Below, one piece after another: positions 14,960 through 54,816 of a stretch of 64,000 nucleotides of DNA. Under the pieces are notes generated by a model. The model made no database searches, was not told the origin of the DNA, and saw only the letters and a list, made by a program, of their open reading frames with translations. The stretch comes from Candidatus Micrarchaeia archaeon (GTDB lineage: Archaea; Micrarchaeota; Micrarchaeia; Anstonellales; Bilamarchaeaceae): positions 902,969 through 966,968 of the forward strand of contig JBAZFC010000001.1 in the NCBI GenBank assembly GCA_041653635.1, given 5' to 3'. The stretch's first letter is position 1. Each line of letters begins with the position of its first letter. Position numbers and translations under genes: made by a program.

Positions 14960-17359
14960 TCATTTTTTCCTGTTAATCCACCAGTGCATGGAATAGGCGC
15001 CCGCGGCGAACGTAAGCGCCCCGAACGCCATGGCCTCGGGAATCACCCACCATGGCAGCGGCAGTTCTCCGGACGCGGATGGCTGCCTTTCCCCAACCAC
15101 GCCTGGAAGGGGTGTCCCGTCCGTGCCTGCGGCTGGAGTTCCCTGGATTGAGATGCACGAGCCGCCCTCACATCCAAAGCCGGGCGCGCAGTCCGCATTA
15201 ATGGTGCATTCTGGCTGCGTGCCGGAAACCGGGGGCTGGGAACCACCGGATGGCTGCTGGCTGCCGGGTTCGGCTCCGGAAACGGGCGGCTGGATGATGG
15301 GTGCCTGCCCGGGCGTTTCCACGCATTCGTTCCCGGCGCATGCGAAGCCCGCGGAACATTCGGAATCAGAGCAGCATTCATACGCGTCGCACTCGTGGTT
15401 GGAGACGATGCCGCAGGCGCATTCCACCGGGGCGCACACGCCCATCCCGCAGTATTCGGAAAGGGCACAGTCCGCATTTGTTTTGCACGCAAGCGTTGCG
15501 GTTTCCTCCTGCGGGCAGGTGGTGTATGCGAAGGCCAGTGGATTATCATAAGTGTAGCCGGAAAGCTCAAAGTATGCGTTGTATGTTCCATTAATGGAGG
15601 CGTTGAAGGTGATGGAGCCATCTGCATCCGTGGTTCCCTCGCCTATTTGCCCTGCGTTCGGCTCCCTGAGGACGATGCGCACATCCACCCCCTCAAGCGG
15701 CTCGCCTCCGTCTGATGCGGATATTATGATTAAATTGCCCGGGCACGCCCTTTCCCATCCCACGTCCATATCCTCATCACCGGGGGAAGGGGGGGCAGAT
15801 GAAGGCGCGCTGGCCGTGAAGGTTACGTTTGAGGAATTCACGTTGCCCGCGGTGTCGTTTGCGAACAGCTCAAGGAAATGCACTCCGTTCCCGGGGCTTA
15901 CGCTTGAATTCAGGCAGCCTGGGAGTGGGACGGCAGCGGAGCCGTCCAGCTCGTACCAGCATGAATCCAGATTAACTTCGGAAACAGTATAATTGAGGCC
16001 TATTGGGATGGAACGGTAGACTATACTTAGCGGGGCCTGAATGCTTATTGACGGAAGGATGGTGTCCAAGTTGAACAGCCCGCTTAAGCCGGTGGAGCAC
16101 TGGCCGAGGACATCGCACGCCTCCACCGCTATCATGTATTCGCCATCCGCAACGCCGACGGGGTCCCACAGGTAGCTGAGGTTGGCGGAGTTGTTCGCGA
16201 TTATCGTGCTGTTGAACGTATCGTCCGAATTGTATAGCGAAATGTTGTAGAAGCTTATTTCGTAGCCGTTGGGCGAGACGGCGGCTGTGTAATTTATGGA
16301 TATGCTGGAGTTATAAGCGGCGTCCTCGGCGGGGGAATAAACCATCGGAGGGTCGGGGAGCAGGCCGGCAAGCTCTATGAGGTCGTAGCGTTCCGCGGAG
16401 CAGTTCCCGCTCCCGTCCCCGGAGCTGTTTGCGCACGCATAATAGCGGAACGTTTCCGAGCCGTCGTACTGGTGGAGGTGCGCATCCACGGTTCCGGAAA
16501 GGTTGCTCCATGCCACGCCCCCGTTCGTGGTGAATTGTATTGCATCATTGCGCGATACGTTTGTGATATAATAGACGTTCCACGAATTCACCCCAAGCCG
16601 CCCCCTCAGCAGGAAGTAGGATATGGGCGTCACCTTCGCGCCGCCAGCGCCCCCGACATTGCCGGATGTCGTATTTATCGTGAACGGGATGACATGGTGC
16701 TTGCTGTATGCGCTGTGCGTGTGGTTGAACGGCTCGGTCCTCGCGAGGTCGTATATCAGGACGCAATTGTTGTTCGTCGCGGGGTTGCCCGTGGCGTAGG
16801 ACGAGTTGCAGTAATACACCCTCAACGTGTTGCTTGCCGTGGTCTGGTTGTCCGCATAAATCTCAAAGAAGGAATAGTTCTTGGCATTTGAAACATTCAG
16901 GAGTTGCACCTTCACATATTCGTCCCCCTCGTCCAAATCGTAGACGGACTTGGGCGTATTGGTCATGTTGTCCTCGTCAAAATTGTAAGTTGCCGGATAG
17001 ACCTCGTCGTTCTGCAGCAGGAACTGCCAGATCTCGGAGGAGTTGCTTATGTTGGCGTCCCCGTTTATGGTCCATCCCGAGCGCGGAGTCCCATTCACAT
17101 ATATGGAAGTATCCAAGGTTGAGGAGTTCGTCTTGTAATTTAGCCCGACTGAGGATGGATTTATGCCCAGGGGGTCGGTAATATTGTAGGTTATGTTTAG
17201 GGGGGCGTTGAACACGTTAAACGTGTCTATGTCGGTTGGAGTCTGGTTTACGAAATGTATTGCCGGCACGGCCATCGCATGAGGCAGGAGGGACGAAAAG
17301 AGGAGGAGCACAGCTATGGATAAGGATGCACCTGCCCTTCCGCAACGGAAACCCACCAT
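14960..17359 (-). CDS. large cell-surface glycoprotein-like protein (S-layer/adhesin candidate) with Cys-knot stalk and C-terminal TM anchor
   Basis: 799 aa. Signal peptide, dozens of N-x-S/T sequons, C-terminal 'CKTNADCALSEYCGMGVC' and 'CTINADCAPGFGCEGGSC' modules, and a final TM helix plus 'NRKK'. Confidence 0.75.
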   Translation of the reverse strand: MVGFRCGRAGASLSIAVLLLFSSLLPHAMAVPAIHFVNQTPTDIDTFNVFNAPLNITYNITDPLGINPSSVGLNYKTNSSTLDTSIYVNGTPRSGWTINGDANISNSSEIWQFLLQNDEVYPATYNFDEDNMTNTPKSVYDLDEGDEYVKVQLLNVSNAKNYSFFEIYADNQTTASNTLRVYYCNSSYATGNPATNNNCVLIYDLARTEPFNHTHSAYSKHHVIPFTINTTSGNVGGAGGAKVTPISYFLLRGRLGVNSWNVYYITNVSRNDAIQFTTNGGVAWSNLSGTVDAHLHQYDGSETFRYYACANSSGDGSGNCSAERYDLIELAGLLPDPPMVYSPAEDAAYNSSISINYTAAVSPNGYEISFYNISLYNSDDTFNSTIIANNSANLSYLWDPVGVADGEYMIAVEACDVLGQCSTGLSGLFNLDTILPSISIQAPLSIVYRSIPIGLNYTVSEVNLDSCWYELDGSAAVPLPGCLNSSVSPGNGVHFLELFANDTAGNVNSSNVTFTASAPSSAPPSPGDEDMDVGWERACPGNLIIISASDGGEPLEGVDVRIVLREPNAGQIGEGTTDADGSITFNASINGTYNAYFELSGYTYDNPLAFAYTTCPQEETATLACKTNADCALSEYCGMGVCAPVECACGIVSNHECDAYECCSDSECSAGFACAGNECVETPGQAPIIQPPVSGAEPGSQQPSGGSQPPVSGTQPECTINADCAPGFGCEGGSCISIQGTPAAGTDGTPLPGVVGERQPSASGELPLPWWVIPEAMAFGALTFAAGAYSMHWWINRKK

Positions 17360-23027: not shown

Positions 23028-23078
23028 AAAAGTAAAGAAAAATTAAAAATAAGGGGGGAAACCCTGCTCAGGGTTTCC
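23028..23078 (-). terminator. hairpin plus T-tract terminator-like element after the beta-helix surface protein gene
   Basis: Minus strand GGAAACCCTGAGCAGGGTTTCC (9-10 bp stem overlapping the stop codon), followed by CCCCTTATTTTTAATTTTTCTTTACTTTT. Confidence 0.5.
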
Positions 23079-26000
23079 TCACGAAGAGCCACCATACGAC
23101 GGCGGCACCAAGGATTACCGCGACCACCACAAGCGCCCAGGGCGTGCCAGCCGTCTCGGTGGTGGACGATGGCATGCTTATTGTTCCCGCCCCCGCAGGG
23201 ACTTCGGTCTCCCTCGGCTGCTGCACGCAGTTATAGTTCGTGCATGCGTAGCCCACGCCGCAATCCCCGTCCGCGCAGCAGTTGAAGCCAACCCATGCGT
23301 GGTTCACGTACTCGCCGCAGGCGCCCGCCTGGACGATTACGCAGCTCCCTCCGCTGCACGCCTCGTTGTAGGCGCAGTCAGCATCAGCCGTGCATCCTCC
23401 CGCGGGCTGTCCGGTCCCTGTGGGGGTTTCCGGAGCAGGTTCGGGTTCCTCCTCAACTTCAATCACGCATATTCCTGCCGTGCACACCCTCCCCACGGCG
23501 CAGTCCGCATCGGAAATGCACACGGGGGCTGTTGCCGCCGCGGAAACTATGAACCTTGCCTCCTCCTCGCTATAGCCGGTTTTTGTCGCGGTTGCCTTGT
23601 ACGAGCCGGCAAAGGCAGGTGTGAAAGTCACTTCACCTTGGGAGTTCGTGTTCCCGATGTCCTCCACCTGGAGGATGCCGTTCAGCCAATAGAACACCTT
23701 CACGTTCGCGCCGCTCAACGGGGTGGTGCCGGCCATCACGGTCAATGTGACGTCCCCGCCGACCGCCGTGTCGCCGCTTACTGCCATGTCCATCGTGCTG
23801 CTTCCGCCGGTGGACGGTATGGCCCCGGACGCGGTGTATCCGGAGAAGGAGTACACCCGGAAGGAAGCCACGTTGCCCGTGCAGGCCTGCGTAGTCGGCG
23901 TAAATACGTCACCCCCGGTTATTATCTCGTCCTGTGTCTGCGGGAAGCCGCTCATGTTGTAATAACGCAGTGCCGAGCAGCTGTTCTTCGGCCGGATATA
24001 TGCGGTTGCCGAGACATTGAGCGCGGAAACATTTGCGTCGCTGATGTTCATGGACACGAACCCCCGGTCCAGGAGAAGATTATCCGTGTCCGCGACCGTG
24101 GTTACGTTTATGTAGATGGTTTCGTAAAGGAGGCCGTAGGAGTTATCATATCCCAACCAAAGGTCCGTGGCGTTTATGGACGAGTTTTCATCCGAGGTGA
24201 TGTACGCGCCGCAGCCCCACATCCGGAAGTTGTCCAATGACACGTTGCCCGGGGAAACGTCCAGGCACGAGACGGAATTATCGTACGAGGTTGCATCCGA
24301 AATCGTGGCATTCCCATAGTCGTCAAACTCGTAGCCGAAAAGGTTGCCGTAAGAGACGGTGCCGACCAGGGTGGCGTTGGTTGAATTGTCTATAAGGAAT
24401 CCCATGATTGCACCGGAAACGGTATCAGAGGTTACCGTGTTATTGGCGCTCTCGTCCGCGATGGCGTAACCTACGAGATGCGTGCCGGTGACCGTATTGC
24501 CCGAAAAGTCGGAGTTGGACGTAGTTTCCACGAACATGCCGACGCCCACAATTGAAACGGCGTGCAGGGAGTTTCCGGTGATATTGCCCCCGGTGGAATT
24601 GTAGAGGTACACCTGCCAGGCCGAGTTGTCCGTAAGCACGTTGGAATCAAGCGTCATGTTCGTAGAGGTCATGACCCAGAATCCCAGCGAGTTGTTTATC
24701 AGGTTGTTCCCGGTCGCGGTAAAGCCGTTGGACCAGTCCACTATGATGGCGACCGTGTTGTTGTGCATGGTGTTGGTGGTGGCACTTGCGGACGAGCTGT
24801 TGTAGAGGTCCACGGCGGCATATGCGCTCAGGTGGTTGTAGATGATATTGCTGTCCATCCCCACGGGGCCGGAGTCAAATATCAGCACGCCGCTTGCCGC
24901 GTTGTCATGGACGCGGTTGTTGCTGAAAACCGCATCGGCGGAGGTCAGCCCCACCGCGGTCAGGTTCGTGCTCTCGTTGAATATGTTCCCGTATATGTAC
25001 AGGGCGGAGGACTGGTAATCCAGCAGCCCGACGCCGTTCGTGGTGAAGCCGTTGTCCGTGACGTTCGTCAGGTTCGTCGTGTCCATGTGAAGGCCGTTCT
25101 CGTTGGTGTCAAAGCTGTTGTTGTCAATCCTGCCGAAGGCACTGGAAGTGAGGTACAGGGCAGCCGCGCTTACGTTTCCGTTGCCGTAGAAGGAGTTGCC
25201 CTGTATGTTTGAGCTGTTGCTGTATGCCAGCCTGGCGCCGTATGCGAGATTGTCCGCCACGGCGTTTCCGGTCAGGACCAGGGAATATGCGCTTATCACC
25301 GACACGCCGTCCGTCTGGTTGGCGACCATGTTGTCCGTGACCACTATCCCGATGCTGTCTGTGAGCAGGCTGACGGCCAGGGAAAGGCCGGTGCCGTTGT
25401 TGCTGTTGATGATGTTTCCGTCAAAGGTGACGTTCTCAAGGTCCACGGCCCCGACGCCCACCGGCACACCGGTCCCCGCCGCGCGGTTCACGTTGTCGCT
25501 TATGTTGTTCATGCTGAACAGGCCGTTGGTGACCTCGGCGAGCAGCATGCCTCCGAACCCTGTTGTGCTCGCGTCGTAGCCGTTGCCCTCAAGGAGGTTG
25601 TTATCAAAAAGGATGTCATTGCAATAGAGAATGGCTACGCCGTACCCATGGGAGCTGGTGGAGAACTGGTTGTCCCTCACCTCGTTGCCCGTTATCTCCG
25701 TGTTGTTGACCTTAGTGAGGGAGAGGCCGGTGCCGTTGTTGTTCGCGAGTACGTTGTTCCGCACCTCGCCGCCAGTGGAGTTGTGAAGGGCGATGCCCGC
25801 TGCGGTCGCGTAGGTATCGGAATAATTAAAGCTCCAGTTGACCGTGTTGTCCAGCAGGTCCACATTACTGTTCCACCCGTAGGCGGTTACGTTGACGAAT
25901 ATGCCGCCCATCCACGGCCGGAGGATGGTGTTGTTGCTGAACTCCGTGTTCAGCAGGTCGTAGCCCTCCACGCCGTAGGTGCCGCAGGATGTGAGGTTGT

Positions 26001-26613
26001 TGTGCTGCACCTCCAGGTTGTCCTGCGTGTCCAGCGTGATGCAGGTTCTGTTATCTGAGTTAAAAACGTTGTATGTTGCGGAGCTGTGGTTGTTCTCGGA
26101 CATGAGCAGTCCATAGGTGTTGTTTGTGAAGGTGTTGCCCGAGGCTTCCGCATAATTCCCCTCCAGGGCGAGCCCCTGGAAGTTCCTTTCAAAAGTGCTG
26201 TCCGTCACGGACGCATTCTCGCCTGCCACGTAGATGCCGTAGAGGCTGCTGTTGTGGAACAGGCTGTTCTGCACCGTGAGCCCGTCCACGCCGTTCGTGA
26301 TGCCTTCAATCCCATAAGTGAAATTGTAAATCCCGCAGTTCTGTATGGTTATGTTGTGCAGCCCCGTATTGTTTATGTAGAATGCGTTGAGCGAAGCGTT
26401 CCCGGTGATGTTGTAAAGGGTGCCGGTGACGTTGCAGTCAATCAGCAGGTTGGAAACGGAGATGTTCACGCAGTTGCTGCCCACGCTCCCGTTCAGGTCG
26501 CTCGTCGGCCTGTATGTGCCGGACGCCGATATCTCGGCATCGCACTGCAGCGAAACGGCGAAAGAAAGCCCGGCCAAAACAATCAGAACAAGGAAAACGC
26601 CCGAATATTTCAT
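23068..26613 (-). CDS. giant right-handed parallel beta-helix (PbH1/NosD-like) surface protein with Cys-knot stalk and TM anchor
   Basis: ~1181 aa from MKYSGVFLVL (signal peptide). It has long arrays of ~22-aa 'N.(I/V/L)..N....G(I/L)' coils, many N-x-S/T sequons, C-terminal 'CISDADCAVGRVCTAGICV' and 'CTADADCAYNEACSGGSCV' modules, and a final TM helix. The ORF track's Pro-rich extension to 26928 is rejected. Confidence 0.8.
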   Translation of the reverse strand: MKYSGVFLVLIVLAGLSFAVSLQCDAEISASGTYRPTSDLNGSVGSNCVNISVSNLLIDCNVTGTLYNITGNASLNAFYINNTGLHNITIQNCGIYNFTYGIEGITNGVDGLTVQNSLFHNSSLYGIYVAGENASVTDSTFERNFQGLALEGNYAEASGNTFTNNTYGLLMSENNHSSATYNVFNSDNRTCITLDTQDNLEVQHNNLTSCGTYGVEGYDLLNTEFSNNTILRPWMGGIFVNVTAYGWNSNVDLLDNTVNWSFNYSDTYATAAGIALHNSTGGEVRNNVLANNNGTGLSLTKVNNTEITGNEVRDNQFSTSSHGYGVAILYCNDILFDNNLLEGNGYDASTTGFGGMLLAEVTNGLFSMNNISDNVNRAAGTGVPVGVGAVDLENVTFDGNIINSNNGTGLSLAVSLLTDSIGIVVTDNMVANQTDGVSVISAYSLVLTGNAVADNLAYGARLAYSNSSNIQGNSFYGNGNVSAAALYLTSSAFGRIDNNSFDTNENGLHMDTTNLTNVTDNGFTTNGVGLLDYQSSALYIYGNIFNESTNLTAVGLTSADAVFSNNRVHDNAASGVLIFDSGPVGMDSNIIYNHLSAYAAVDLYNSSSASATTNTMHNNTVAIIVDWSNGFTATGNNLINNSLGFWVMTSTNMTLDSNVLTDNSAWQVYLYNSTGGNITGNSLHAVSIVGVGMFVETTSNSDFSGNTVTGTHLVGYAIADESANNTVTSDTVSGAIMGFLIDNSTNATLVGTVSYGNLFGYEFDDYGNATISDATSYDNSVSCLDVSPGNVSLDNFRMWGCGAYITSDENSSINATDLWLGYDNSYGLLYETIYINVTTVADTDNLLLDRGFVSMNISDANVSALNVSATAYIRPKNSCSALRYYNMSGFPQTQDEIITGGDVFTPTTQACTGNVASFRVYSFSGYTASGAIPSTGGSSTMDMAVSGDTAVGGDVTLTVMAGTTPLSGANVKVFYWLNGILQVEDIGNTNSQGEVTFTPAFAGSYKATATKTGYSEEEARFIVSAAATAPVCISDADCAVGRVCTAGICVIEVEEEPEPAPETPTGTGQPAGGCTADADCAYNEACSGGSCVIVQAGACGEYVNHAWVGFNCCADGDCGVGYACTNYNCVQQPRETEVPAGAGTISMPSSTTETAGTPWALVVVAVILGAAVVWWLFVRKP

Positions 26614-26677
26614 GTGCAAAAATACAAAGATAAAATTTATAAAGAGGAATGTGGTTGATTTGGCAAGAGGGGATGAC

Positions 26678-27208
26678 ATGAAAATCTTGATTGCTTTGTT
26701 GGCTTTGGGAATTTTGCTGTTCGGCTGTGCACAGCAGCCGGAAACCGCGGCACCTGGGACCGGGGGCGCCACTGGCGGAAGCGGCGGCGCAGGCGGAAGC
26801 ACCGGGGGCAGCGGAGGGCAGGTCGTTGATGTCGGCGAAACTACCGGCGGAACGGGAGGCGGAAGCACCGGCTCCGGGGAAACCGGCGGCGGGGAAACCG
26901 GAACAGGCGGCAGCGGAGGCGGAATCATAGGGGTTGAGACGCCCGCCAGCGAGGGCGACGTTACCGTTTACATAAGGGATTTCCAGTTCGTGCCGGAAAC
27001 CGTGACCGTGAAGCAGGGGAGCACCGTCTTCTGGGTTAACGAGGACAACGTGCCGCACGCGGTCAGGATGATTGGCGTGATAGACTCGCCTTACCTCGCG
27101 AAGGACGGCGCGCCTTTCTGGCACACCTTCACCGAGAGGCCGGGAACCTACGAGTATTCCTGCAGCATACACCTGTCCATGCACGGGACAGTGATTGTGA
27201 CGGAATGA
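26678..27208 (+). CDS. blue-copper (amicyanin/plastocyanin-like cupredoxin) lipoprotein
   Basis: Lipobox 'LLFGCAQQ', a Gly/Ser/Thr linker, and a cupredoxin domain with ligand pattern 'VPHAV' ... 'YSCSIHLSM' (C-x2-H-x2-M). GAGGGG lies 6 nt before the ATG. Confidence 0.75.
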   Translation: MKILIALLALGILLFGCAQQPETAAPGTGGATGGSGGAGGSTGGSGGQVVDVGETTGGTGGGSTGSGETGGGETGTGGSGGGIIGVETPASEGDVTVYIRDFQFVPETVTVKQGSTVFWVNEDNVPHAVRMIGVIDSPYLAKDGAPFWHTFTERPGTYEYSCSIHLSMHGTVIVTE

Positions 27209-27986: not shown

Positions 27987-28145
27987 TTAGTGCCTCAGCT
28001 TGAGCCAGCGCGCCACTTCCTCCTTTTTCTGCACGCACTGCGCGCAGAACGCATGCGTCATCCCGTCCACGTCGGTACGCTTGGAGGCCTCGCTATGCAC
28101 GATTCCGGCATCGCACAATGCGCATTTTTCCTGCCCTTCAAACAT
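27987..28145 (-). CDS. 52-aa zinc-ribbon protein (paralogue A)
   Basis: MFEGQEKCALCDAGIVHSEASKRTDVDGMTHAFCAQCVQKKEEVARWLKLRH, with CxxC...CxxC. AGGTG lies ~5 nt before the ATG. The ORF-track entry 27987-28283 is an upstream extension. Confidence 0.5.
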   Translation of the reverse strand: MFEGQEKCALCDAGIVHSEASKRTDVDGMTHAFCAQCVQKKEEVARWLKLRH

Positions 28146-28203
28146 AACGCCACCTGTTATGTATGATATGCAAGAGGGAATAAAAAGGGCGTGCAATGCG
28201 TGC

Positions 28204-28362
28204 CTAATCCTTCGTCCCGAGCTTCCTCGCCACTTCTTCGGCATTGCCCGCGCAGCGCTCGCAGAATGAGTAAGCCACTCCATCCAGCCCGGTCCTCCTC
28301 TTCACGGCGCAGTCGGACAGGTCCTTCCTGCACAGCGCGCAATTCTCTTTCAGATGCAACAT
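28204..28362 (-). CDS. 52-aa zinc-ribbon protein (paralogue B)
   Basis: Hand-translated as MLHLKENCALCRKDLSDCAVKRRTGLDGVAYSFCERCAGNAEEVARKLGTKD. It aligns without gaps to paralogue A (19/52 identical by my count). Not in the ORF track because it is under 60 aa. Confidence 0.5.
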   Translation of the reverse strand: MLHLKENCALCRKDLSDCAVKRRTGLDGVAYSFCERCAGNAEEVARKLGTKD

Positions 28363-28496
28363 TCAAACGCCTCTTCCAGTTTTCCGCATCCGGCAACCGG
28401 CACCCGGTTCCCGGCAATCCTTTGCGGAACAGCTCCACACATAGAAGAAAGCAAATAAAAAGGTGGAGGAATGAAGGTATTTGGAACGGGGATGCT

Positions 28497-28814
28497 ATGG
28501 CGGGAAAAATTGCTGGTGGGGCAGGAAGCGGTGCGCCTTCTTATTCTCCATCCGACATAAGCCGCCTGGAAAAATCCGCGCTGGACCGGGCGAACAAGGC
28601 GGTCTCCGCGATAGAGAACGCAATCGCATTGTGGGAGGCGTCCCCGCAGAAGCCGCAGGACATAGGGCTCAGGGTGGGGCGGCTCGTGCATTTCTACGGA
28701 GAAATAACCAAGTGGGAGAGGAAGATGCTGAAATCCGCGGGAAGGAAGCGTGACATGTTGGCGAGGATAGCTCTCCTCCGGGAGTTCAGCGACATCTGCC
28801 ACGCGTCGGCATAG
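28497..28814 (+). CDS. small helical protein immediately upstream of the giant ORF
   Basis: 105 aa from MAGKIAGG, taken as the first plausible Met not overlapping the divergent genes. It ends 12 nt before the 1559-aa ORF. Confidence 0.4.
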   Translation: MAGKIAGGAGSGAPSYSPSDISRLEKSALDRANKAVSAIENAIALWEASPQKPQDIGLRVGRLVHFYGEITKWERKMLKSAGRKRDMLARIALLREFSDICHASA

Positions 28815-28826
28815 GGGAATGGAAAC

Positions 28827-31800
28827 ATGGCAAGGCCAGCACAGCGGGGGAGGGAAGAGGTTCCTGAGGCCCAGCGTGCGGAGGAGGCGGCAAACGAATT
28901 CCTGAGGCAGGGCGCAGAGCAGCACGCGCCCGTATCCCCGCAGGTGCTGGGGCAGCTGGAGAGCGCGGAGGAAACATTGCGCTCCGCGCTGCTCGTCGCG
29001 GGGGAAATAGACCGGACATTAGGGCTCTCTCCGGAGCAGGCGGGCTCGCGGCTCGGGGAATATATGGAAAGGATGCGCGGCGCGCTGGAAGAATTCGCGC
29101 AGGCGCAGGTAGGGGGCGTGGAGGGAAGGTTCGGCCAGCCCGCGCAGCAGATTCTTGGGGAACTGGAAAACGCGGAGAGGATGCTCGCGGGCGGGGATTC
29201 CTCCGGGGCGCAGGCCGCTTTTGACAATGCGCAGATGCACCTTGAGCAGCTCGCAGAGGTTGTGTCCCGCGCAAGGGGGCTTTTCGCCTCAGGCGCGCCG
29301 CCTGCGATTGCGGACGCGATGGATTCCGCCGCCTCGTTCTTCATGCAGGGGGACGCGATGCGCGCAAGGATTCTTTTGGACGCCGCGGACGCGTTCCTCC
29401 GCAACAGGGATTTCCTTCTCAGCTCGGTTGGCGATTATTACCTTTCCACACTCTCGGATTTCGCGGGCGCAGTTGCGGATGCGCGTGAAGGCGTGGAGCA
29501 CGAGGCCGCCGCTGCGGGGCTTGCGGGCTTTGAGGCGAATTTGAAGGAGGATTGGGGAAGGATTTCCGGCATAATAGCGGAATGCACGGTGCTCATGGAA
29601 AGCGGGCCTGGGAGAGCTTCGGAGGAGGGGAGCGCAAAATGGCTCGCGGGGAAGGCGATGGACGCGCTCCGTGAAGGGAATGTGGAAGTGGCCGCGCTCG
29701 CATACTCGCTTGCGCGCATGGAGGCGGATGCGAAGGGGCTGGACAGAAGGAAGGGCGCGGAGGATTATATAGATAATTATGCTGATGCGCTGCGCGCCGT
29801 GAAGGAGGGTGCGGAGCCGGAGGAGCTTGTGCGGCTTGCCTCGGATGTGCACGGAGGGGCGCTGCGGATTGAGGCGGAGAAGCTTGCGGCAGGGTATTCT
29901 GCACGCGAGGGGGCCTCAGCCGCGGAGAATGAGAGGAGGGAACGTATTTCAGCCGCCGCGGATATTGTGGCGATGAGGGTTTCTGAAGGGGATTTGCAGG
30001 GGGCGGAGCGCCTCCTTTACATGGCAACGCAGTACGCGAAGGCGCTGGATTCCACTCCCCATGCATGGAGGACCGGGCTGGAGAACTCGCTTGAGATGGA
30101 GAATGCGATTGATGCGGAGAGGATAAGCGGCACGGACTCGCTCGCCCAATTCGGGGGGGCGCTGTTGCTCCAGGATGCGGCTACGCAGGCGTCCGCGCTT
30201 CGGGCATCATTGGCTGGGGCAGGATGGGGCGAAGCGGTTGCGCACCAAACTGAAATGGTTTTCGGTGCGCTGCGCTCAGTGGAGGCACTGGCAGCCGAAG
30301 GGAAGGGTGAGGAGGCCGCCGCGCTGCTCGCGCTCTCCGCGCTATATGTGAATGCGGTGGGAAGCATTGCCCGGAGAGATGCGGGGTCGAAGATAACCTC
30401 GCTGGATGCGCGGTTTGATTCGTCGCAGATGGAGGATGCGCTTCTTGGTTTTGCGGAACCGGGTGCGGACCTGGATTCCCTCTCTTCGCTTTTCGTACAG
30501 GGCTATTCCGCCAGCGAGCGGCTCGCGGTGGAGATGCAGGCCGAGGCGCTGTACGCACTTACGGAAGGGCGCTCGCTGGGGAGGGACACCGTGGGGAAGG
30601 CGCTGGAGATTGCACAGCAGCGCGCCTCGCAGGGCGACCTTGAGGGCGCGCGCCTGCTGATGGGATACGTGGAGGATTATTACGGGATCGCAGGGGCGGT
30701 GGAAACCGGCAGGATGCTGGAAAATGGAAACCCGGAACTGGAAACCGTGGAAGCGGGCTGGAGGTATTCGCAATTCTCCGGCGAGAATACGCCCATCCCC
30801 GGCTACGCTTCAGGGATGCAGGACATGCTGGATTGCATGAGGTGGGAAATCGCAATTACCGAGGGAAGAAGGGAGGACACCTCCGAATCCCACCGCGAGG
30901 CTCAGGGGATTTTCCTGCGCGGGGCCCAGAGGATTGCGGACACCGGGCGGCTGATGTCCGCATTTTCCGAATACAAGGATTTGTATTTCAGCGAGCAGCC
31001 GGACGTTTCCAGCGTGGAATTCCGTACCGGCGTGCATGCGATGCGCCTGCGGGAGGCCGGGGGGATTCCATCCGCCGCGGTGGAGGCGCCAGTTGCAACC
31101 GTGGAGGTTTCCGCAGCCGGGCCGTCCATACGGTTCGCGGACGTGCGCGCATACGATTTGGCGCACCATGGGGAGGACGAGGCGCTGAGGGGAAGCCCCA
31201 CGCTGGAGCAGCTGCTCGCGAACTGCGAGGCCGCCGCGCTAAGCGGGAACGTGGATGCATACAATGAGGCAAAGGGTGCGCTGGAGGAACAATTCGGGCT
31301 GGTTGCCGAACGCCTCGTAAGGGCCAGGAACATAGAGAATTCAATTGCGCAGCTTAACCTCGCAGGGGAGGGGCTTGGAAGCATAATCAAATCATATTAT
31401 GATTCGCTGGAGGGAAGCGAACTAACGGACGCGGAAAAGGAAACCGTGAGGCATTCGGCGCAGCAGAAGGCAATGGAGCTGGACGGGAGGAGGCAGGAGC
31501 TCTCGCTCCGCCTCGGCGGGATGCTCTACTCGCTGGACGACTACCTGGATGCGTCCTCTGCCGCGCTCTCCGATTATGCGGAATTCCTGAAGGATTTCAA
31601 GGTGGAGAGGGACAACGCCGCCGCGATAATGACCGGCGCTTCCTTCCTCACCGCGCAGATGCAGGAGCTGGAAAATTATGCGAAGACGCTCACGCCCACC
31701 GCAGCGCCGCCGCAGGCGCGGGAGGCGCTCTCCCAATCAAGGGAATTCCTGGAGGACGCGCTGAAGGCGCTGGTGCAGGGCAACCTTCCGCTCGCGCAGA

Positions 31801-33506
31801 GGGCGTACGCGGCCTCGGTCGGGCACAGGATTCTGGCGATGGAGGGCTATATGCTCGGCGGGAGCGGCGAGGTCTCCGCTTCCGAGCAGGAGCGCGGCTT
31901 CACGCAGGGGGAATGGGGGGAGTTCTCGGATTATTTCAAATTGCAGAAGGATGCGTTCGCGCTTGCGATTTCCTCCCCGGACCAGAGGGGCGAGATAGAG
32001 TGGAGGCAGAAGGCAACCGGGCTGGTGGAGCTCGCGGTGTTCGGCATACCTATGCATGAATTGAGCCAGTCGCTCGCTGATTTCAATTCTTCGCAGAGGG
32101 AGGTGCTCGGGCTTGTTTCCGAGCTTGCGAAGCCGGAGAACTCGCTATTCGTGGGGCAGAACCTGTCCGATGCGGAGCGGATGATAGAGGAGATGCAGGG
32201 GCGCGTGGAGGACAATAGGTTCTGGTTCCATGCAGGGATTACCGCGGGCGGCACGGTTGTGGGCTTCATCCCCGTGGTCGGGCCGACGCTCACCACCATA
32301 ATATTCACAAGCACGGCGATAGATTCTGTGGTCACGGAATACGAGGCGACGGGCCAGGTCTCTGCGCAGAACTGGTGGAACCTCGGGCTCATGATTGGCA
32401 CGGGCATGCTCGGGGCCGCATCGCAGATGCTCCGCACCGCGCAGATGGAGGCGATGGAAATCGGGGCGCTCGCAAGCGCGCGCAGCATAGGGCGCGTTGC
32501 GACAGGTGTCAATATTGCGAGCCTTGGGGTTGGCGGGTATTTCATGGTGGATATGAGCATCGCCGCCTCGGAACAGTTCGCTGCAGGAAATGCACGCGAG
32601 GCCGTCATTAGTTTAGGGATGGCGCTCATGCCCGCGGTGCACCTAGGGAGCGCCGCTGGGGGTTTTGTTGCCGCGCGCGAGATGCGGGCAGAACAGAGGG
32701 CTGCACGCGAGCAGGCGGCCCGCATGGCTGTCGCATCCGCGCTTGAGCTCATAGAAAGAAGGCGGCCCGCGGAGATAAGTATCAGGGAGGTTACGCGGGC
32801 CCTGGAGGAGAGGGTCCGGCCCCCTGCGCGGGAAGAGGCGGCAACACGCGAAGCCGGGGCTGGAGCGGCTGCCGCGCGCACCGTGGAAACCGAAGGCAGG
32901 GCGCCAGGCGCAGAAGCCGCCCTCGCCACAGGAACAGCGAATACCGGCACCGCATACAGGATGCAACAGGGCCGCGCAGGCGCGCACATGGACGTGGAAC
33001 AGATTGATTCAACGCTGCGCAGAATGGTGACCACCAGCACAACCACGGAGGAGAGGGCTGCGGCGCTGGACTCTTTCGCGAGGCTTTCCCCGGAGGAGCA
33101 GGCGCTTTTCATCTCAGGGCTCCACGAGGAGAGGAGGAATGCTGAGATAGCCTACCTCACCGAATTCGCGGCGCTCAACTCGGAAGTGGGCCGTGCAATC
33201 GAAAGCGCATATGCCGGGCAACTTGGGAAATATGCCGACGTGGGGCCCGGCGTGCTCAGCGACATATACATACAGGCGGGCTCCCTCCAGCAGGCGAGGC
33301 AGTACCTCGCCCAAGCGCTTGGGATAGAGCTCGTGCCGTACAGCAGAATGCTCGTAAACGAGTACGTGGGCTTCAGGACGCTCGCGGATGACGGCTTCCT
33401 TTTCGGCATGCTCACCTCCGGGGACATGCTTGGCGCAATAAGGGAGATGCATCCCGGCGGCAGGGTGACATCCATAGAATTCATAACTGCCTCGGTGGGC
33501 GCATAG
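28827..33506 (+). CDS. giant (1559 aa) Ala-rich alpha-helical protein with C-proximal 4-TM block
   Basis: Uninterrupted 4.7-kb ORF. About 1150 aa are Ala/Glu/Leu/Arg-rich helical sequence. Four hydrophobic segments follow ('FHAGITAGGTVVGFIPVVGPTLTTIIF','WWNLGLMIGTGMLGAA','VNIASLGVGGYFMV','VISLGMALMPAVHLGSAAGGFVAA'), then a ~270-aa tail. Confidence 0.8.
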   Translation: MARPAQRGREEVPEAQRAEEAANEFLRQGAEQHAPVSPQVLGQLESAEETLRSALLVAGEIDRTLGLSPEQAGSRLGEYMERMRGALEEFAQAQVGGVEGRFGQPAQQILGELENAERMLAGGDSSGAQAAFDNAQMHLEQLAEVVSRARGLFASGAPPAIADAMDSAASFFMQGDAMRARILLDAADAFLRNRDFLLSSVGDYYLSTLSDFAGAVADAREGVEHEAAAAGLAGFEANLKEDWGRISGIIAECTVLMESGPGRASEEGSAKWLAGKAMDALREGNVEVAALAYSLARMEADAKGLDRRKGAEDYIDNYADALRAVKEGAEPEELVRLASDVHGGALRIEAEKLAAGYSAREGASAAENERRERISAAADIVAMRVSEGDLQGAERLLYMATQYAKALDSTPHAWRTGLENSLEMENAIDAERISGTDSLAQFGGALLLQDAATQASALRASLAGAGWGEAVAHQTEMVFGALRSVEALAAEGKGEEAAALLALSALYVNAVGSIARRDAGSKITSLDARFDSSQMEDALLGFAEPGADLDSLSSLFVQGYSASERLAVEMQAEALYALTEGRSLGRDTVGKALEIAQQRASQGDLEGARLLMGYVEDYYGIAGAVETGRMLENGNPELETVEAGWRYSQFSGENTPIPGYASGMQDMLDCMRWEIAITEGRREDTSESHREAQGIFLRGAQRIADTGRLMSAFSEYKDLYFSEQPDVSSVEFRTGVHAMRLREAGGIPSAAVEAPVATVEVSAAGPSIRFADVRAYDLAHHGEDEALRGSPTLEQLLANCEAAALSGNVDAYNEAKGALEEQFGLVAERLVRARNIENSIAQLNLAGEGLGSIIKSYYDSLEGSELTDAEKETVRHSAQQKAMELDGRRQELSLRLGGMLYSLDDYLDASSAALSDYAEFLKDFKVERDNAAAIMTGASFLTAQMQELENYAKTLTPTAAPPQAREALSQSREFLEDALKALVQGNLPLAQRAYAASVGHRILAMEGYMLGGSGEVSASEQERGFTQGEWGEFSDYFKLQKDAFALAISSPDQRGEIEWRQKATGLVELAVFGIPMHELSQSLADFNSSQREVLGLVSELAKPENSLFVGQNLSDAERMIEEMQGRVEDNRFWFHAGITAGGTVVGFIPVVGPTLTTIIFTSTAIDSVVTEYEATGQVSAQNWWNLGLMIGTGMLGAASQMLRTAQMEAMEIGALASARSIGRVATGVNIASLGVGGYFMVDMSIAASEQFAAGNAREAVISLGMALMPAVHLGSAAGGFVAAREMRAEQRAAREQAARMAVASALELIERRRPAEISIREVTRALEERVRPPAREEAATREAGAGAAAARTVETEGRAPGAEAALATGTANTGTAYRMQQGRAGAHMDVEQIDSTLRRMVTTSTTTEERAAALDSFARLSPEEQALFISGLHEERRNAEIAYLTEFAALNSEVGRAIESAYAGQLGKYADVGPGVLSDIYIQAGSLQQARQYLAQALGIELVPYSRMLVNEYVGFRTLADDGFLFGMLTSGDMLGAIREMHPGGRVTSIEFITASVGA

Positions 33507-33515
33507 AGGATAAGG

Positions 33516-35135
33516 GTGGAAGGGCCGGACGGGGTTGCGCACGACGTTTACGCGAAGAGGCAGGAGCTCATGCCAGACCACAGAGCAGATGCCGAAAGCA
33601 ACAGGTCCGGGATACCTGCGCCCCCAGTGATAACCACCAGGATGGGCGGGGAGTCGCTCCAGTACATGCAGCCGGACGGCACGCTGTCCGCGTACGGGAT
33701 AATGGATGACATACTGGAGTACCACGGGGTGCTGCCCATGGCCGGCAGGAACGTGGAGGTGCGGGCGATAGGGGGCAGCAGCGTGAGGGACTTTGAATTC
33801 AGCCCGGAATTCACAGAAATGCTGGCCACGGATCCGCAGAGGTTCTGGGAGGAATACGGGTTCGCGATGGCCGGCTCGTATTTCATGGGCGTCGGAGACA
33901 GGCATGCGCGCAACGTGTTCCTGCTCAAGCTGGAGCTCGTAAACCCGTCTGCGGGGGACCTTGCGGCGCTCGGATATGAACTCAGGACGGGGCCCGCAGG
34001 GGAGAGGCGGCTTGTGCAGGCCTCCGAATTCCCCGCCCGACACCTGGAGATGGACGCCGAAGGGAGGATAACCATGACCTCCTTCGCCAACATAGACATA
34101 GACTCGGCGGGTTCGTACCTCGCCAGCCGGAGGCCGGACGGCAGCTTTGACTTCTCTGCCATGAATGAAGACTATGGAAAGGATGCCGTGCACAAATTCT
34201 TCGTGAGGCTCACCAGGAATGTGAACATACACGAGGCGGCGCTTGCGGCCTCGGAGGGAAGGGAACCGCAGTTCGTTGCCGTGGAAGATGTAGTGCGGCA
34301 GGCATTCGGGCAGCCGGGCAGAGGGCCGCTTTTCAACGGAATACTTCAATGGTTCACGGAATTCGGGAGGGAAAGCGAGTATGTTGATGCGCTTGCAGCC
34401 ATGTTCGGCGAGAGTGCGGGTCAGCACGCAGGCCTGGGCATCCCCATGCTGGAGCCGGAGATGGCAAGGTTCAGGGAGAACGGCTACTCATACCGCCCCG
34501 AACCGATGAATGGGGACCCGATTACGCTGATAGAATTCTCCGATGGCAGGCAGGTGATGCGGCCGAGGTATGAATATGCTGCATCCTACCCGGAAGAATT
34601 CAATGGCGTGTTCCCGCAGGGCAGGAAGGTCTATGTGGCGCCCGTGCCTGCGGATTTCCCTGGCGCGGTTGGATTCGGGGCAAATACTGCGTTCGCAGTA
34701 TTCGGGTCCGCGGCAGAAATTCCCCCGGAGCTTGCCGGAAGCGCGGTGGAGGCAATAAGGTTCGGAAGCGCGATAAGGGCGGGCGTTGGCTTCGGGGAAA
34801 TCACCGGCCAGTCCACGACTGAATGCGGGCAGCTGCCGGCGCTGCAATCTCTCGCTGAGGGTGGCGGCCCCGCAATGGTAAGAAGCTGGATCAGGATAGG
34901 AGAACTCATAATCAGGACGGAACGCGAGGAGCGCACGCTTGCGGAAGCCGCGGCTTCGGATGGCGACACATCTGCCCTGGACACTTATACTTCGGAAAGG
35001 TACCCGCCTGGCGCGGCAACGCAGCCGCGGCCTAGGGAACAGGCACCGCGTGCAGAAGAAGAATCGCCATCTTCATCAGAAGAAGCCACTAGGGAAGAGG
35101 CAACGCGGGAAGAAGCAACGAGGCCCGAAATCTAA
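33516..35135 (+). CDS. PI3K/PI4K-like (atypical) kinase-domain protein
   Basis: GTG start 6 nt after a GAGGA that overlaps the giant ORF's stop. 'FMGVGDRHARNVFLL' matches the PI3/PI4-kinase catalytic loop G-x-GDRH-x-x-N. 'FANIDIDSAG' sits in the DFG-equivalent position. The C-terminal tail carries a tandem 'EEATR' repeat. Confidence 0.55.
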   Translation: MEGPDGVAHDVYAKRQELMPDHRADAESNRSGIPAPPVITTRMGGESLQYMQPDGTLSAYGIMDDILEYHGVLPMAGRNVEVRAIGGSSVRDFEFSPEFTEMLATDPQRFWEEYGFAMAGSYFMGVGDRHARNVFLLKLELVNPSAGDLAALGYELRTGPAGERRLVQASEFPARHLEMDAEGRITMTSFANIDIDSAGSYLASRRPDGSFDFSAMNEDYGKDAVHKFFVRLTRNVNIHEAALAASEGREPQFVAVEDVVRQAFGQPGRGPLFNGILQWFTEFGRESEYVDALAAMFGESAGQHAGLGIPMLEPEMARFRENGYSYRPEPMNGDPITLIEFSDGRQVMRPRYEYAASYPEEFNGVFPQGRKVYVAPVPADFPGAVGFGANTAFAVFGSAAEIPPELAGSAVEAIRFGSAIRAGVGFGEITGQSTTECGQLPALQSLAEGGGPAMVRSWIRIGELIIRTEREERTLAEAAASDGDTSALDTYTSERYPPGAATQPRPREQAPRAEEESPSSSEEATREEATREEATRPEI

Positions 35136-35164: not shown

Positions 35165-35785
35165 TCAATGCACCGTTTCAAGCCTTGCCATGGAGGAATG
35201 GCCGGTTTCACGGTCGCATACTGCGATGAGGCCGTTTCCCGCCGCGGCACTGGCCCCCGCCCGCCTCAGCGCCACTTCAATCGCAGTCTTTATGACCGCC
35301 CAGCCCTGCCTGCCGTCCCCTCTGTATTCCTGCACGATTCCCCGCACCACTATCCTGCGCCTGGCGTCAAAAAGCAGGAAGTGCGTCGCGCTGGCGCTGT
35401 CATAAACCATGAAGCCGTATTCCATCCCGGTGGAGAAGGACTTGCCGCCAGCCCTGAGGCCCTGGAAAATGGCGCCCATATCCGTGTTATCCGTACTGCA
35501 GTATTGCAAATATGGCCCGGGCAGGTAGAATAACTTATCCGGGACGCCAAGGAGGCGCTCCAGGTCCGCGTCCCATCCTGTGCCCATTGATTTGAGGAAA
35601 TTGATTGCTTCGGAAGCAGGCACCTCTTTAGGATTTGGGATAGTTTTGTCCTGCGGGGGTGTGCGGGCCTCCATCAACTTACGGTATGCCTCGGTCTTGT
35701 AATAAGGAACGCTCTTGCCGCCGTTCCCATTCTTGGGGTCGGAATTGTGGTTTCCTGCAGCAGCGTTCGGGCCCATCCTTATCAT
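35165..35785 (-). CDS. hypothetical protein with possible Cys-His-Asp (transglutaminase/papain-like) core
   Basis: 206 aa. 'YCSTDNTDMGAIFQGLRAGGKS....GFMVYDSASATHFLLFDA' resembles the transglutaminase-like C...H..D arrangement. This is a weak call made by eye. Confidence 0.4.
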   Translation of the reverse strand: MIRMGPNAAAGNHNSDPKNGNGGKSVPYYKTEAYRKLMEARTPPQDKTIPNPKEVPASEAINFLKSMGTGWDADLERLLGVPDKLFYLPGPYLQYCSTDNTDMGAIFQGLRAGGKSFSTGMEYGFMVYDSASATHFLLFDARRRIVVRGIVQEYRGDGRQGWAVIKTAIEVALRRAGASAAAGNGLIAVCDRETGHSSMARLETVH

Positions 35786-54496: not shown

Positions 54497-54731
54497 CGAC
54501 TGGAGCGTACTAATTGCCAAACCGTGATTTACATGGTTTGGGGTTTTTGGGATTTCGTTTTAGTCGGAAGCGTGGGTGAGCTTGAGGTTTTTGGGCTCCT
54601 TTTTGCTTCCGAGCGATGGTGAAGTTCCGCAGAACTTCGCCAGACATCGCCGCAGCGATGCGGAAGCGAGGATACCCAAAGGCAGAGCGAAAGCGAGGCG
54701 TTATGCCTCGCTGGAGCGAGAAAAAAGGAGA

Positions 54732-54816
54732 GCAGGGGTGGCGGAGCCTGGAAAACGCGCGGGGCTTAGAACCCCGTGGCCTAGCGCCTACGCAGGTTCA
54801 AATCCTGCCCCCTGCA
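54732..54816 (+). tRNA. tRNA-Leu(UAG): tRNA-Leu (anticodon UAG)
   Basis: Cloverleaf folded by hand. Acceptor GCAGGGG/CCCCTGC plus discriminator A, 3-bp D stem, anticodon stem CGGGG/CCCCG with loop CTTAGAA, 15-nt variable arm, T arm GCAGG-TTCAAAT-CCTGC. No encoded CCA. Followed by a T-run. Confidence 0.85.

Follow-up and report, generated by a model that had tools for sequence, protein, structure and literature searches.

The question raised by this locus is what a 4.7-kb open reading frame (ORF) of Candidatus Micrarchaeia archaeon encodes, and whether it is a whole gene. The ORF lies on the + strand at 28827-33506 of the 64,000-nucleotide stretch analysed here (from contig JBAZFC010000001.1; hereafter the window) and runs from ATG to TAG over 1559 codons. 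An initial annotation, made from the letters and their ORFs, took it for the gene of an orphan Ala-rich membrane protein followed by a separate kinase-like gene. Comparison with other assemblies and with relatives shows that these two ORFs form one gene, split in this assembly by a private TAG. We give a probability of about 0.6 to the reading that best explains the locus as a whole, namely a TAG-split gene for a giant, membrane-associated atypical kinase which works with small partner proteins.

28827..35135, + strand: the whole gene, 2103 codons with one in-frame TAG, encoding a 2102-amino-acid (aa) protein if that codon is TAC.
33504..33506, + strand: the in-frame TAG, private to this assembly, which replaces the near-invariant Tyr of a G-x-V-G-A-Y motif.

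The downstream ORF (33516-35135) shares its frame with 28827-33506 and only the TAG at 33504-33506 parts them, the 1559-aa ORF making up the N-terminal 74% of the whole 2102-codon gene. Four public metagenome assemblies (X1-X4, one from groundwater and three from landfill) contain nearly the same DNA, and each of them has C at position 33506, so that the codon reads TAC (Tyr), and A at position 33508. Over 32 kb (26000-58000), X1 differs from the window at these two positions only, and its 40.5-kb contig encodes an uninterrupted 2102-aa protein (P0159), reading ...ITASVGAYKIRVEGPDG... In the closest relative, P0002, one ORF spans at least 2188 aa and encodes Tyr where the window has TAG. Another, P0004 (2259 aa), aligns end to end with the 1559-aa ORF (E 8.6e-290) and runs on through the downstream part as a single protein. 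Tyr is found at this position in 28 of the 31 family domain copies, and the ratio of non-synonymous to synonymous substitution rates (dN/dS) is about 0.2 on either side of the TAG.

The separate kinase-like gene of the initial annotation is therefore the end of the same 2102-codon gene, joined to the 1559-aa ORF in P0159, P0002 and P0004. The annotation had also allowed for an assembly error that would make several genes of its ORF; an error or mutation is indeed present, with the reverse effect, as one gene was made to look like two. Two origins of the TAG come into question: a sequencing or polishing (consensus) error, or a nonsense mutation that arose very recently. The practical lesson is that one private stop made a single gene resemble an orphan protein and a separate kinase-like gene.

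To find relatives, an exhaustive HMMER search was run with the 539-aa downstream part as query. This returned 35 representative proteins, most of them 2000-7300 aa long, with the matching region near the C-terminus. Iterated local searches delimited a conserved module of about 730 aa, which starts at aa 1357, crosses the TAG and extends through the whole downstream ORF; what had been described as a ~270-aa soluble tail of the 1559-aa ORF is instead the start of this kinase-like module. A word-indexed protein search found one relative of the 1559-aa ORF and matched nothing to the module alignment, probably because Ala-rich words swamp its candidate list. All matches in species-representative genomes (11 of 11) were Candidatus Micrarchaeota or unclassified archaeal metagenome-assembled genomes (MAGs), a scan of metagenome contigs contributed just two further loci, and no relative was present in 2.9 million viral contigs.

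Pfam searches of 15 family members (~44,000 residues) gave one domain match, Metallophos, in one protein; P0004, P0005, P0006 and P0020 had no Pfam match. Searches of both ORFs and of two partner ORFs flanking the gene against Pfam, NCBIfam, PHROGs and PADLOC gave nothing meaningful. Neither ORF, nor the module profile nor the partner profile, matched any PDB sequence, and literature searches, within the library covered, found no description of such a family. By sequence criteria this is a new and undescribed family of very large proteins in Micrarchaeota, outside PF00454.

The module is internal or duplicated in several of the giants. Extra partial copies, covering approximately the helical domain and N-lobe, occur 700-2500 aa upstream of the complete copy in many giants (P0003, P0007, P0005, P0013 and P0018; loci L004, L005, L007, L008 and L012), and P0003 and L008 have two nearly complete copies. 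In the window the module and its predicted active-site residues are laid out as follows.

32895..33503, + strand: first part of the module (aa 1357-1559), comprising a domain of ~12 helices, strand beta-1 and the Gly-rich loop ITASVGA, from the AlphaFold model and the alignment.
33507..34286, + strand: remainder of the kinase-like core, from motif conservation in 31 copies and fold matches.
33555-33557, + strand: Lys1577 (in YAKRQELMPD), the ATP-site Lys of the predicted core.
33888-33914, + strand: GVGDRHARN, the catalytic loop of the predicted core.
34092-34103, + strand: IDID, the metal-binding-like motif of the predicted core.
34287..35135, + strand: C-terminal part of the module, with helices, a beta-rich subdomain, a long helix and a disordered acidic tail, from the model and conservation.
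35079-35132, + strand: three EEATR repeats, a perfect triple repeat in a Pro/Glu/Ser-rich tail predicted to be disordered.

An AlphaFold2 model of the module, built from an 11-sequence alignment, reached a predicted local distance difference test score (pLDDT) of 86.8 and a predicted template-modelling score (pTM) of 0.84; a single-sequence AlphaFold prediction of the 539-aa ORF had a pLDDT of 39. In the model, the domain of ~12 helices is followed by an N-lobe of five strands and a helix, a C-lobe made of helices and an alpha/beta end. In Foldseek searches against the PDB, the best match was Rio2 (4gyi; E 5e-4, probability 0.98). After it, nearly all of the top 50 matches were members of the PI3K superfamily, including mTOR, Vps34, PI3K-delta, ATM/Tel1, the DNA-PK FATKIN, Mec1 and ATR (E 1e-3 to 2e-2, probabilities of at most 0.96). 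Against the predicted viral structures of BFVD, a giant-virus PI3K came first (E 2.9e-4), ahead of further PI3/PI4 kinases and protein kinases. For the module as modelled, there is good support for a protein-kinase-like fold.

Putative active-site residues are conserved throughout the family, with model residues K237, D351, H353, N356, D417 and D419 kept in 29-31 of the 31 copies. The Lys of the consensus FVKRQDLRPD, at the end of beta-3, is present in 30 of 31 (the window reads YAKRQELMPD), and the G-x-V-G-A-Y motif sits between beta-1 and beta-2. After a long C-lobe helix comes D-[RG]-H-x-x-N, in which D and N are present in 31/31 copies, H in 29/31, and R or G in 16/31 and 12/31, respectively. 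The I-D-x-D motif after a beta strand (IDTD in the family, IDID in the window) has both Asp residues in 31/31. An active phosphotransferase would be expected to retain the Lys, catalytic Asp, Asn and metal-binding Asp in this way.

PI3K, PI4K and PIKK enzymes are marked by the motifs K..DLRQD and DRHxxN, and DLRQD was found in the real TOR sequences that we retrieved from the database. When the family was compared with these TORs using HHalign, an N-lobe piece paired the family K..DLRPD with TOR LLKGHEDLRQD (P 0.011). The DRHxxN loops also paired (TOR GDRHPSN), with P 0.001 for the C-lobe sub-alignment and 0.05 for the whole, and reversed controls gave P 0.2-0.27. The closest known kind to the module is PI3K/PIKK, and the locus combines a kinase fold with a family, an architecture and a gene cassette that are all undescribed.

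Two small genes flank the giant gene and recur with it.

28497..28814, + strand: 105-aa partner ORF, ending 12 nucleotides upstream of the big gene, with a conserved C-terminal 'F..IC[HY]'.
35165..35785, - strand: 206-aa partner gene, convergent and immediately downstream of the big gene.

Homologues of the 105-aa ORF lie directly upstream of family genes in L013 and L005/L007, and homologues of the 206-aa gene keep its position and orientation at 10 loci, where two to three tandem paralogues are often present. The distant, AT-rich member P0025 (locus L016) keeps the three-gene layout, with an 88-aa relative of the upstream ORF (hidden Markov model, HMM, E 1.4e-7) and a homologue of the 206-aa gene (HMM E 2.5e-29). 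Comparison of these loci shows a conserved cassette of a small upstream ORF, a giant gene and one to three convergent ~200-aa paralogues. Neither partner is fused into the giants, and neither matched a family, a helix-turn-helix (HTH) domain or a solved structure. In Micrarchaeia STL-MIC1 at least two, and perhaps three, cassettes (L005 and L007) stand head to tail over ~45 kb of contig JAXLQI010000002.1, with giant genes of at least 4085 and at least 4941 codons.

Beyond the cassette, the surrounding genes have housekeeping roles (ribonucleotide reductase, FBPase, ornithine cyclodeaminase, amino-acid kinase, UbiX/UbiD and AcnX), and their order is kept in L001 and L013. The big gene is therefore chromosomal and vertically inherited. 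A phage or mobile-element origin was rejected, given this conserved synteny and the lack of any viral-contig or PHROG match. A phage tape-measure protein, one of two known families that the initial annotation had suggested looking for among homologues, was set aside on the same findings (no PHROG match, no viral-contig relative, housekeeping neighbours in conserved synteny). The other, an SMC-like protein, was set aside as no Walker A motif and no SMC match in Pfam or NCBIfam was found.

The remainder of the giant protein, upstream of the module, consists of three regions.

28827..32216, + strand: N-terminal region (aa 1-1130), rich in Ala, Glu, Leu, Gly and Arg, and lineage-specific.
32220..32681, + strand: Gly-rich hydrophobic block (aa 1132-1285) of four or five moderately hydrophobic segments.
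32682..32894, + strand: Arg/Ala/Glu-rich linker (aa 1286-1356), variable and ~100 aa shorter than in P0002.

Measured against the relative at locus L001, which is 80% identical, dN/dS was 0.13-0.21 in all segments. This holds over the full length of the 1559-codon frame, hence the frame is truly coding and under purifying selection, and the ORF of the initial annotation is real although, as the TAC of four assemblies shows, it is not a complete gene. Several of the annotation's other observations hold. The N-terminus (MARPAQRGREEVPEAQ...), read directly, lacks a hydrophobic signal, in line with the proposed absence of a signal peptide. The low-diversity composition is likewise evident, as the ORF is Ala-rich (A 16.6, E 10.2, L 9.7, G 9.6 and R 7.3%) and the compositional entropy of its N-terminal part is slightly reduced (3.89 bits, against ~4.1 in other window proteins). 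Furthermore, the protein is not of S-layer, beta-helix or adhesin type. The long antisense ORFs are, as suggested, a by-product of GC-rich codons, since that at 31931-33112 is broken by stops in both relatives. GC content is 61-62.5% over 28001-34000, against ~55% in the rest of the window, and the gene's GC at third codon positions (GC3) is 0.73. This high GC fits the Ala/Gly/Arg-rich composition and not recent transfer, because the locus is syntenic in relatives.

Homologues of the N-terminal arm were found only in P0002 and P0004. The arm is under purifying selection (dN/dS 0.17-0.21), and N-terminal regions cannot be aligned between paralogues. It has no Pfam match and no Walker A motif, and self-BLAST and self-HHalign revealed no internal repeats. 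HEAT/TPR-type repeats were considered and rejected, as none were detected and a TPR_8 match (E 0.014) was sub-threshold noise.

The hydrophobic block, in contrast to the arm, is shared by distant members. It is the best-conserved segment relative to the close relative (89% identity, dN/dS 0.13), is present at the same relative position in P0025, P0031 and P0033 (E 1e-39 to 1e-57) and P0029 (E 7.6e-5), and is weaker in P0032 and P0014. A conserved polar motif, EYxxTGxVS, follows the first hydrophobic segment, Gxxx[GAS] motifs occur 10 times against ~5 expected, and two Kyte-Doolittle peaks exceed 1.5. Membrane association of the block is plausible. Between block and module lies an indel hot spot (32830-33000, aa ~1335-1390), and the extra linker segment of P0002 reads ...GRQLADAKAAAEGRRGVSG...DVEVTARDGTKYTVRVSAEG...

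In the mechanism that we propose, a fast-evolving and probably helical N-terminal arm of ~1130 aa would be followed by the conserved Gly-rich hydrophobic helical block, the variable linker and the ~730-aa module. This module, predicted to combine a helical domain, a bilobal kinase-like domain with a PI3K/PIKK-type signature and an alpha/beta end, would act as an active ATP-dependent phosphotransferase, whose substrate could be a protein or an inositol lipid. The block would hold the protein at a membrane, and the giant would work with the ~100-aa upstream protein and one or more ~200-aa convergent partners. A role in symbiont-host interaction or conflict, at the interface between the two cells, is possible.

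A number of results weigh against this proposal. The Foldseek E-values are modest (5e-4 to 2e-2) and the template-modelling (TM) scores are low (0.12-0.26), so the matches are local, multi-domain ones and not rigid superpositions, and they support a fold similar to that of PI3K/PIKK kinase domains only moderately. The HHalign P-values are weak, and the sub-alignments were picked to surround the motifs. At the catalytic loop, HipA of E. coli gives an alignment (P 0.08) about as good as that of TOR, hence the subfamily call rests on the fold matches and the K..DLRxD motif. Pfam, NCBIfam, PDB phmmer and PDB hmmsearch connect the module with no kinase family, and PF00454 (PI3_PI4_kinase) gave no match, even at E<=10, to the window ORFs or to 11 module sequences. 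The motif in the place of DFG is D-x-D, with Phe and Gly absent and the first Asp invariant, and an insert of 30-50 residues separates this motif from the catalytic loop. None of the RNA-seq runs checked contained the gene. With regard to the membrane, the initial annotation's four-helix block stands as a conserved Gly-rich hydrophobic block, but only a marginally hydrophobic one. Its 19-residue Hessa insertion sums are +4.3 to +6.4 kcal/mol, values calculated from sequence that fit marginal or conditionally inserting helices and not classic anchors, and several family giants are without any hydrophobic segment.

Comparison with the PI3K/PI4K/PIKK enzymes themselves (Vps34, p110, mTOR, ATM, DNA-PKcs; PF00454) brings out both likeness and difference. 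The shared features are a predicted bilobal kinase fold after a helical domain, most of the top-50 PDB and top BFVD fold matches, an ATP-site Lys followed by DLR[Q/P]D, and the catalytic loop D-R-H-x-x-N; with the PIKKs, the family also shares very large proteins with the kinase near the C-terminus. It differs in having D-x-D for DFG (the roles of DRH and DFG are described in PMC7619004), in its post-loop insert and in its Gly-rich beta-1/beta-2 loop, the glycines of which are missing from most members of that superfamily (PMC7619004). Whereas the real TORs in the same database carry the FATC domain (PF02260), the family has no FATC match. HEAT or FAT repeats are not detectable in the family either, the C-terminus being an alpha/beta region and a long helix. 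Lastly, the family is archaeal (Micrarchaeota) and the superfamily eukaryotic.

The PI3K, PI4K and PIKK kinases are generally taken to have arisen in eukaryotes, apart from a scattering of effectors in bacteria. If true, a family in archaea that shares their catalytic signature and predicted fold, within proteins 2000-7300 residues long, would provide a prokaryotic comparison point for their origin.

Rio2 was the best single Foldseek match to the module model, and RIO kinases are atypical kinases found throughout archaea. The family differs from them, with no RIO1 Pfam match and unrelated size and architecture, and RIO catalytic loops are not known to have the D-R-H-x-x-N or K..DLRxD motifs.

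Among the alternatives to a membrane-associated kinase with small partners, a conflict or effector system is the one that survives best, and we regard it as possible but on balance doubtful. Here the giant would be delivered, the block would insert in the target (host) membrane and the kinase would work in the target cytoplasm, with the ~200-aa paralogues as immunity or neutralising proteins and the small upstream protein as a chaperone or adaptor. Tandem arrays of two to three partner paralogues beside giant genes would suit such a system, but the partner is convergent, on the opposite strand, and PADLOC gave no match. Several cassettes, diverged from one another, occur in some MAGs (a single contig of STL-MIC1 has two to three in tandem) and the unalignable N-terminal regions point to fast evolution between paralogues, whereas the lineage studied here has one copy of the gene, which keeps its synteny and evolves under ordinary purifying selection. 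It is also the C-terminal module that is conserved, where a variable toxin tip would be looked for, and this module is not always terminal or single in the giants. The family is found only in Micrarchaeota-type MAGs, and archaea of this type depend on hosts. Toxins that insert conditionally typically have Gly-zipper helices of marginal hydrophobicity; however, the protein has no signal peptide and no known secretion or trafficking domain. Finally, the catalytic loop can be aligned with that of HipA, a toxin that resembles PI3/4 kinases and has an antitoxin as its neighbour (PMC9758233).

The likeness to HipA kinases (HipBA, HipBST) extends to a loop, D-G-H-x-K-N, which aligns with the family D-[RG]-H-x-x-N, to a small neighbouring partner gene and to the existence of split versions (PMC9758233). 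It stops there, as no HipA_C match was found, HipA is outside the top 50 fold matches and the N-lobe motifs do not align. Furthermore, the partners here are not HTH antitoxins, and the family proteins are 5-15 times larger. Polymorphic toxin systems (PMC3482391) share the arrangement of a very large protein beside arrays of small paralogous partners. They differ in that here the C-terminus is conserved and the N-terminus variable, no trafficking domain is present and the partners are convergent, not co-directional.

For the giant proteins of DPANN archaea, Candidate Phyla Radiation (CPR) bacteria and Omnitrophota, an extracellular location is predicted, along with signal peptides or anchors and adhesion, protease or glycoside-hydrolase domains. 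The present family, by contrast, lacks a signal peptide and is nearly free of Pfam domains, and its enzyme domain looks ATP-dependent. What it has in common with such giants (nanohaloarchaeal SPEARE; predatory Omnitrophota, bioRxiv 10.1101/2023.11.21.568195) is proteins of several thousand residues in small-genome symbionts or predators, largely unannotated and with a suspected role in cell-cell interaction. If our proposal is true, the cassette would offer a concrete three-gene system for work on symbiont-host interaction in DPANN biology. These very large genes are so far nearly unannotated, as the single Pfam match shows, and the gene behind the stop-codon artefact is more interesting than the orphan 1559-aa membrane protein first proposed.

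A bolder form of the kinase proposal, which we consider rather unlikely, would make the family a distinct and ancient prokaryotic branch of the PI3K/PIKK superfamily in Micrarchaeota, its helical domain and kinase being embedded in giant proteins. It would then be either a sister group bearing on the origin of the eukaryotic enzymes or a membrane-inserting effector kinase used by the symbiont to manipulate its archaeal host, under the control of the dedicated small partners.

It is improbable that the kinase-like fold serves something other than phosphotransfer, whether as another ATP-using enzyme (AMPylases and glutamylases are known among pseudokinase-fold proteins) or in a purely structural role. 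Atypical chemistries are known for kinase folds, and the D-x-D in place of DFG, the large inserts and the lack of a sequence match to any kinase family would fit one. The full set of Lys, catalytic Asp, Asn and metal-binding Asp, essentially invariant in 31 copies, argues for phosphotransfer instead. SidJ and SelO are among the protein-kinase-like families (PMC9758233).

We hold it to be very unlikely that the split is real and functional, with the 1559-aa protein and a 539-aa protein assembling into a composite kinase. The TAG is present in the assembly as given, a GTG at 33516, three codons past it, could start the 539-aa product, and both halves are also recorded as separate proteins, from a 1.03-Mb contig; split kinases of the HipA type exist (PMC9758233). 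However, the cut falls in the Gly-rich loop between strands beta-1 and beta-2 of the predicted N-lobe, with loss of the near-invariant Tyr, and the product from the GTG would be without beta-1 and the helical domain, which argues against a designed two-gene arrangement. All relatives are fused, and the four other assemblies have TAC, one of them otherwise identical over 32 kb save for position 33508.

Decoding of the TAG, by pyrrolysine or programmed read-through, would yield the full protein from the given sequence and would account for an in-frame stop with purifying selection beyond it, but can be dismissed, since TAG is an ordinary stop that terminates 18 of the 50 long ORFs in the window, no tRNA-Pyl was found in these 64 kb, and relatives and other assemblies plainly encode Tyr.

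Other features of the window lie outside the cassette. Between the FBPase gene and the cassette, a 1286-aa right-handed beta-helix/NosD-like protein is encoded on the - strand (23068-26928); L013 has small unrelated genes at this position, so the beta-helix gene is a lineage-specific insertion or replacement. The - strand at 14960-17359 carries a 799-aa ORF with no Pfam match at E<=1e-5, another unannotated large protein. Just upstream of a tRNA-Leu gene (54732-54816), the stretch 54580-54731 contains short GC-rich hairpins (GAAGTTCCGCAGAACTTC, CATCGCCGCAGCGATG) and matches several different contigs in public runs; two of the runs have an alternative form with 12 bases (GCCCCGCAGGGT) instead of 63. 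This stretch looks like a small repeated or variable element beside the tRNA gene.

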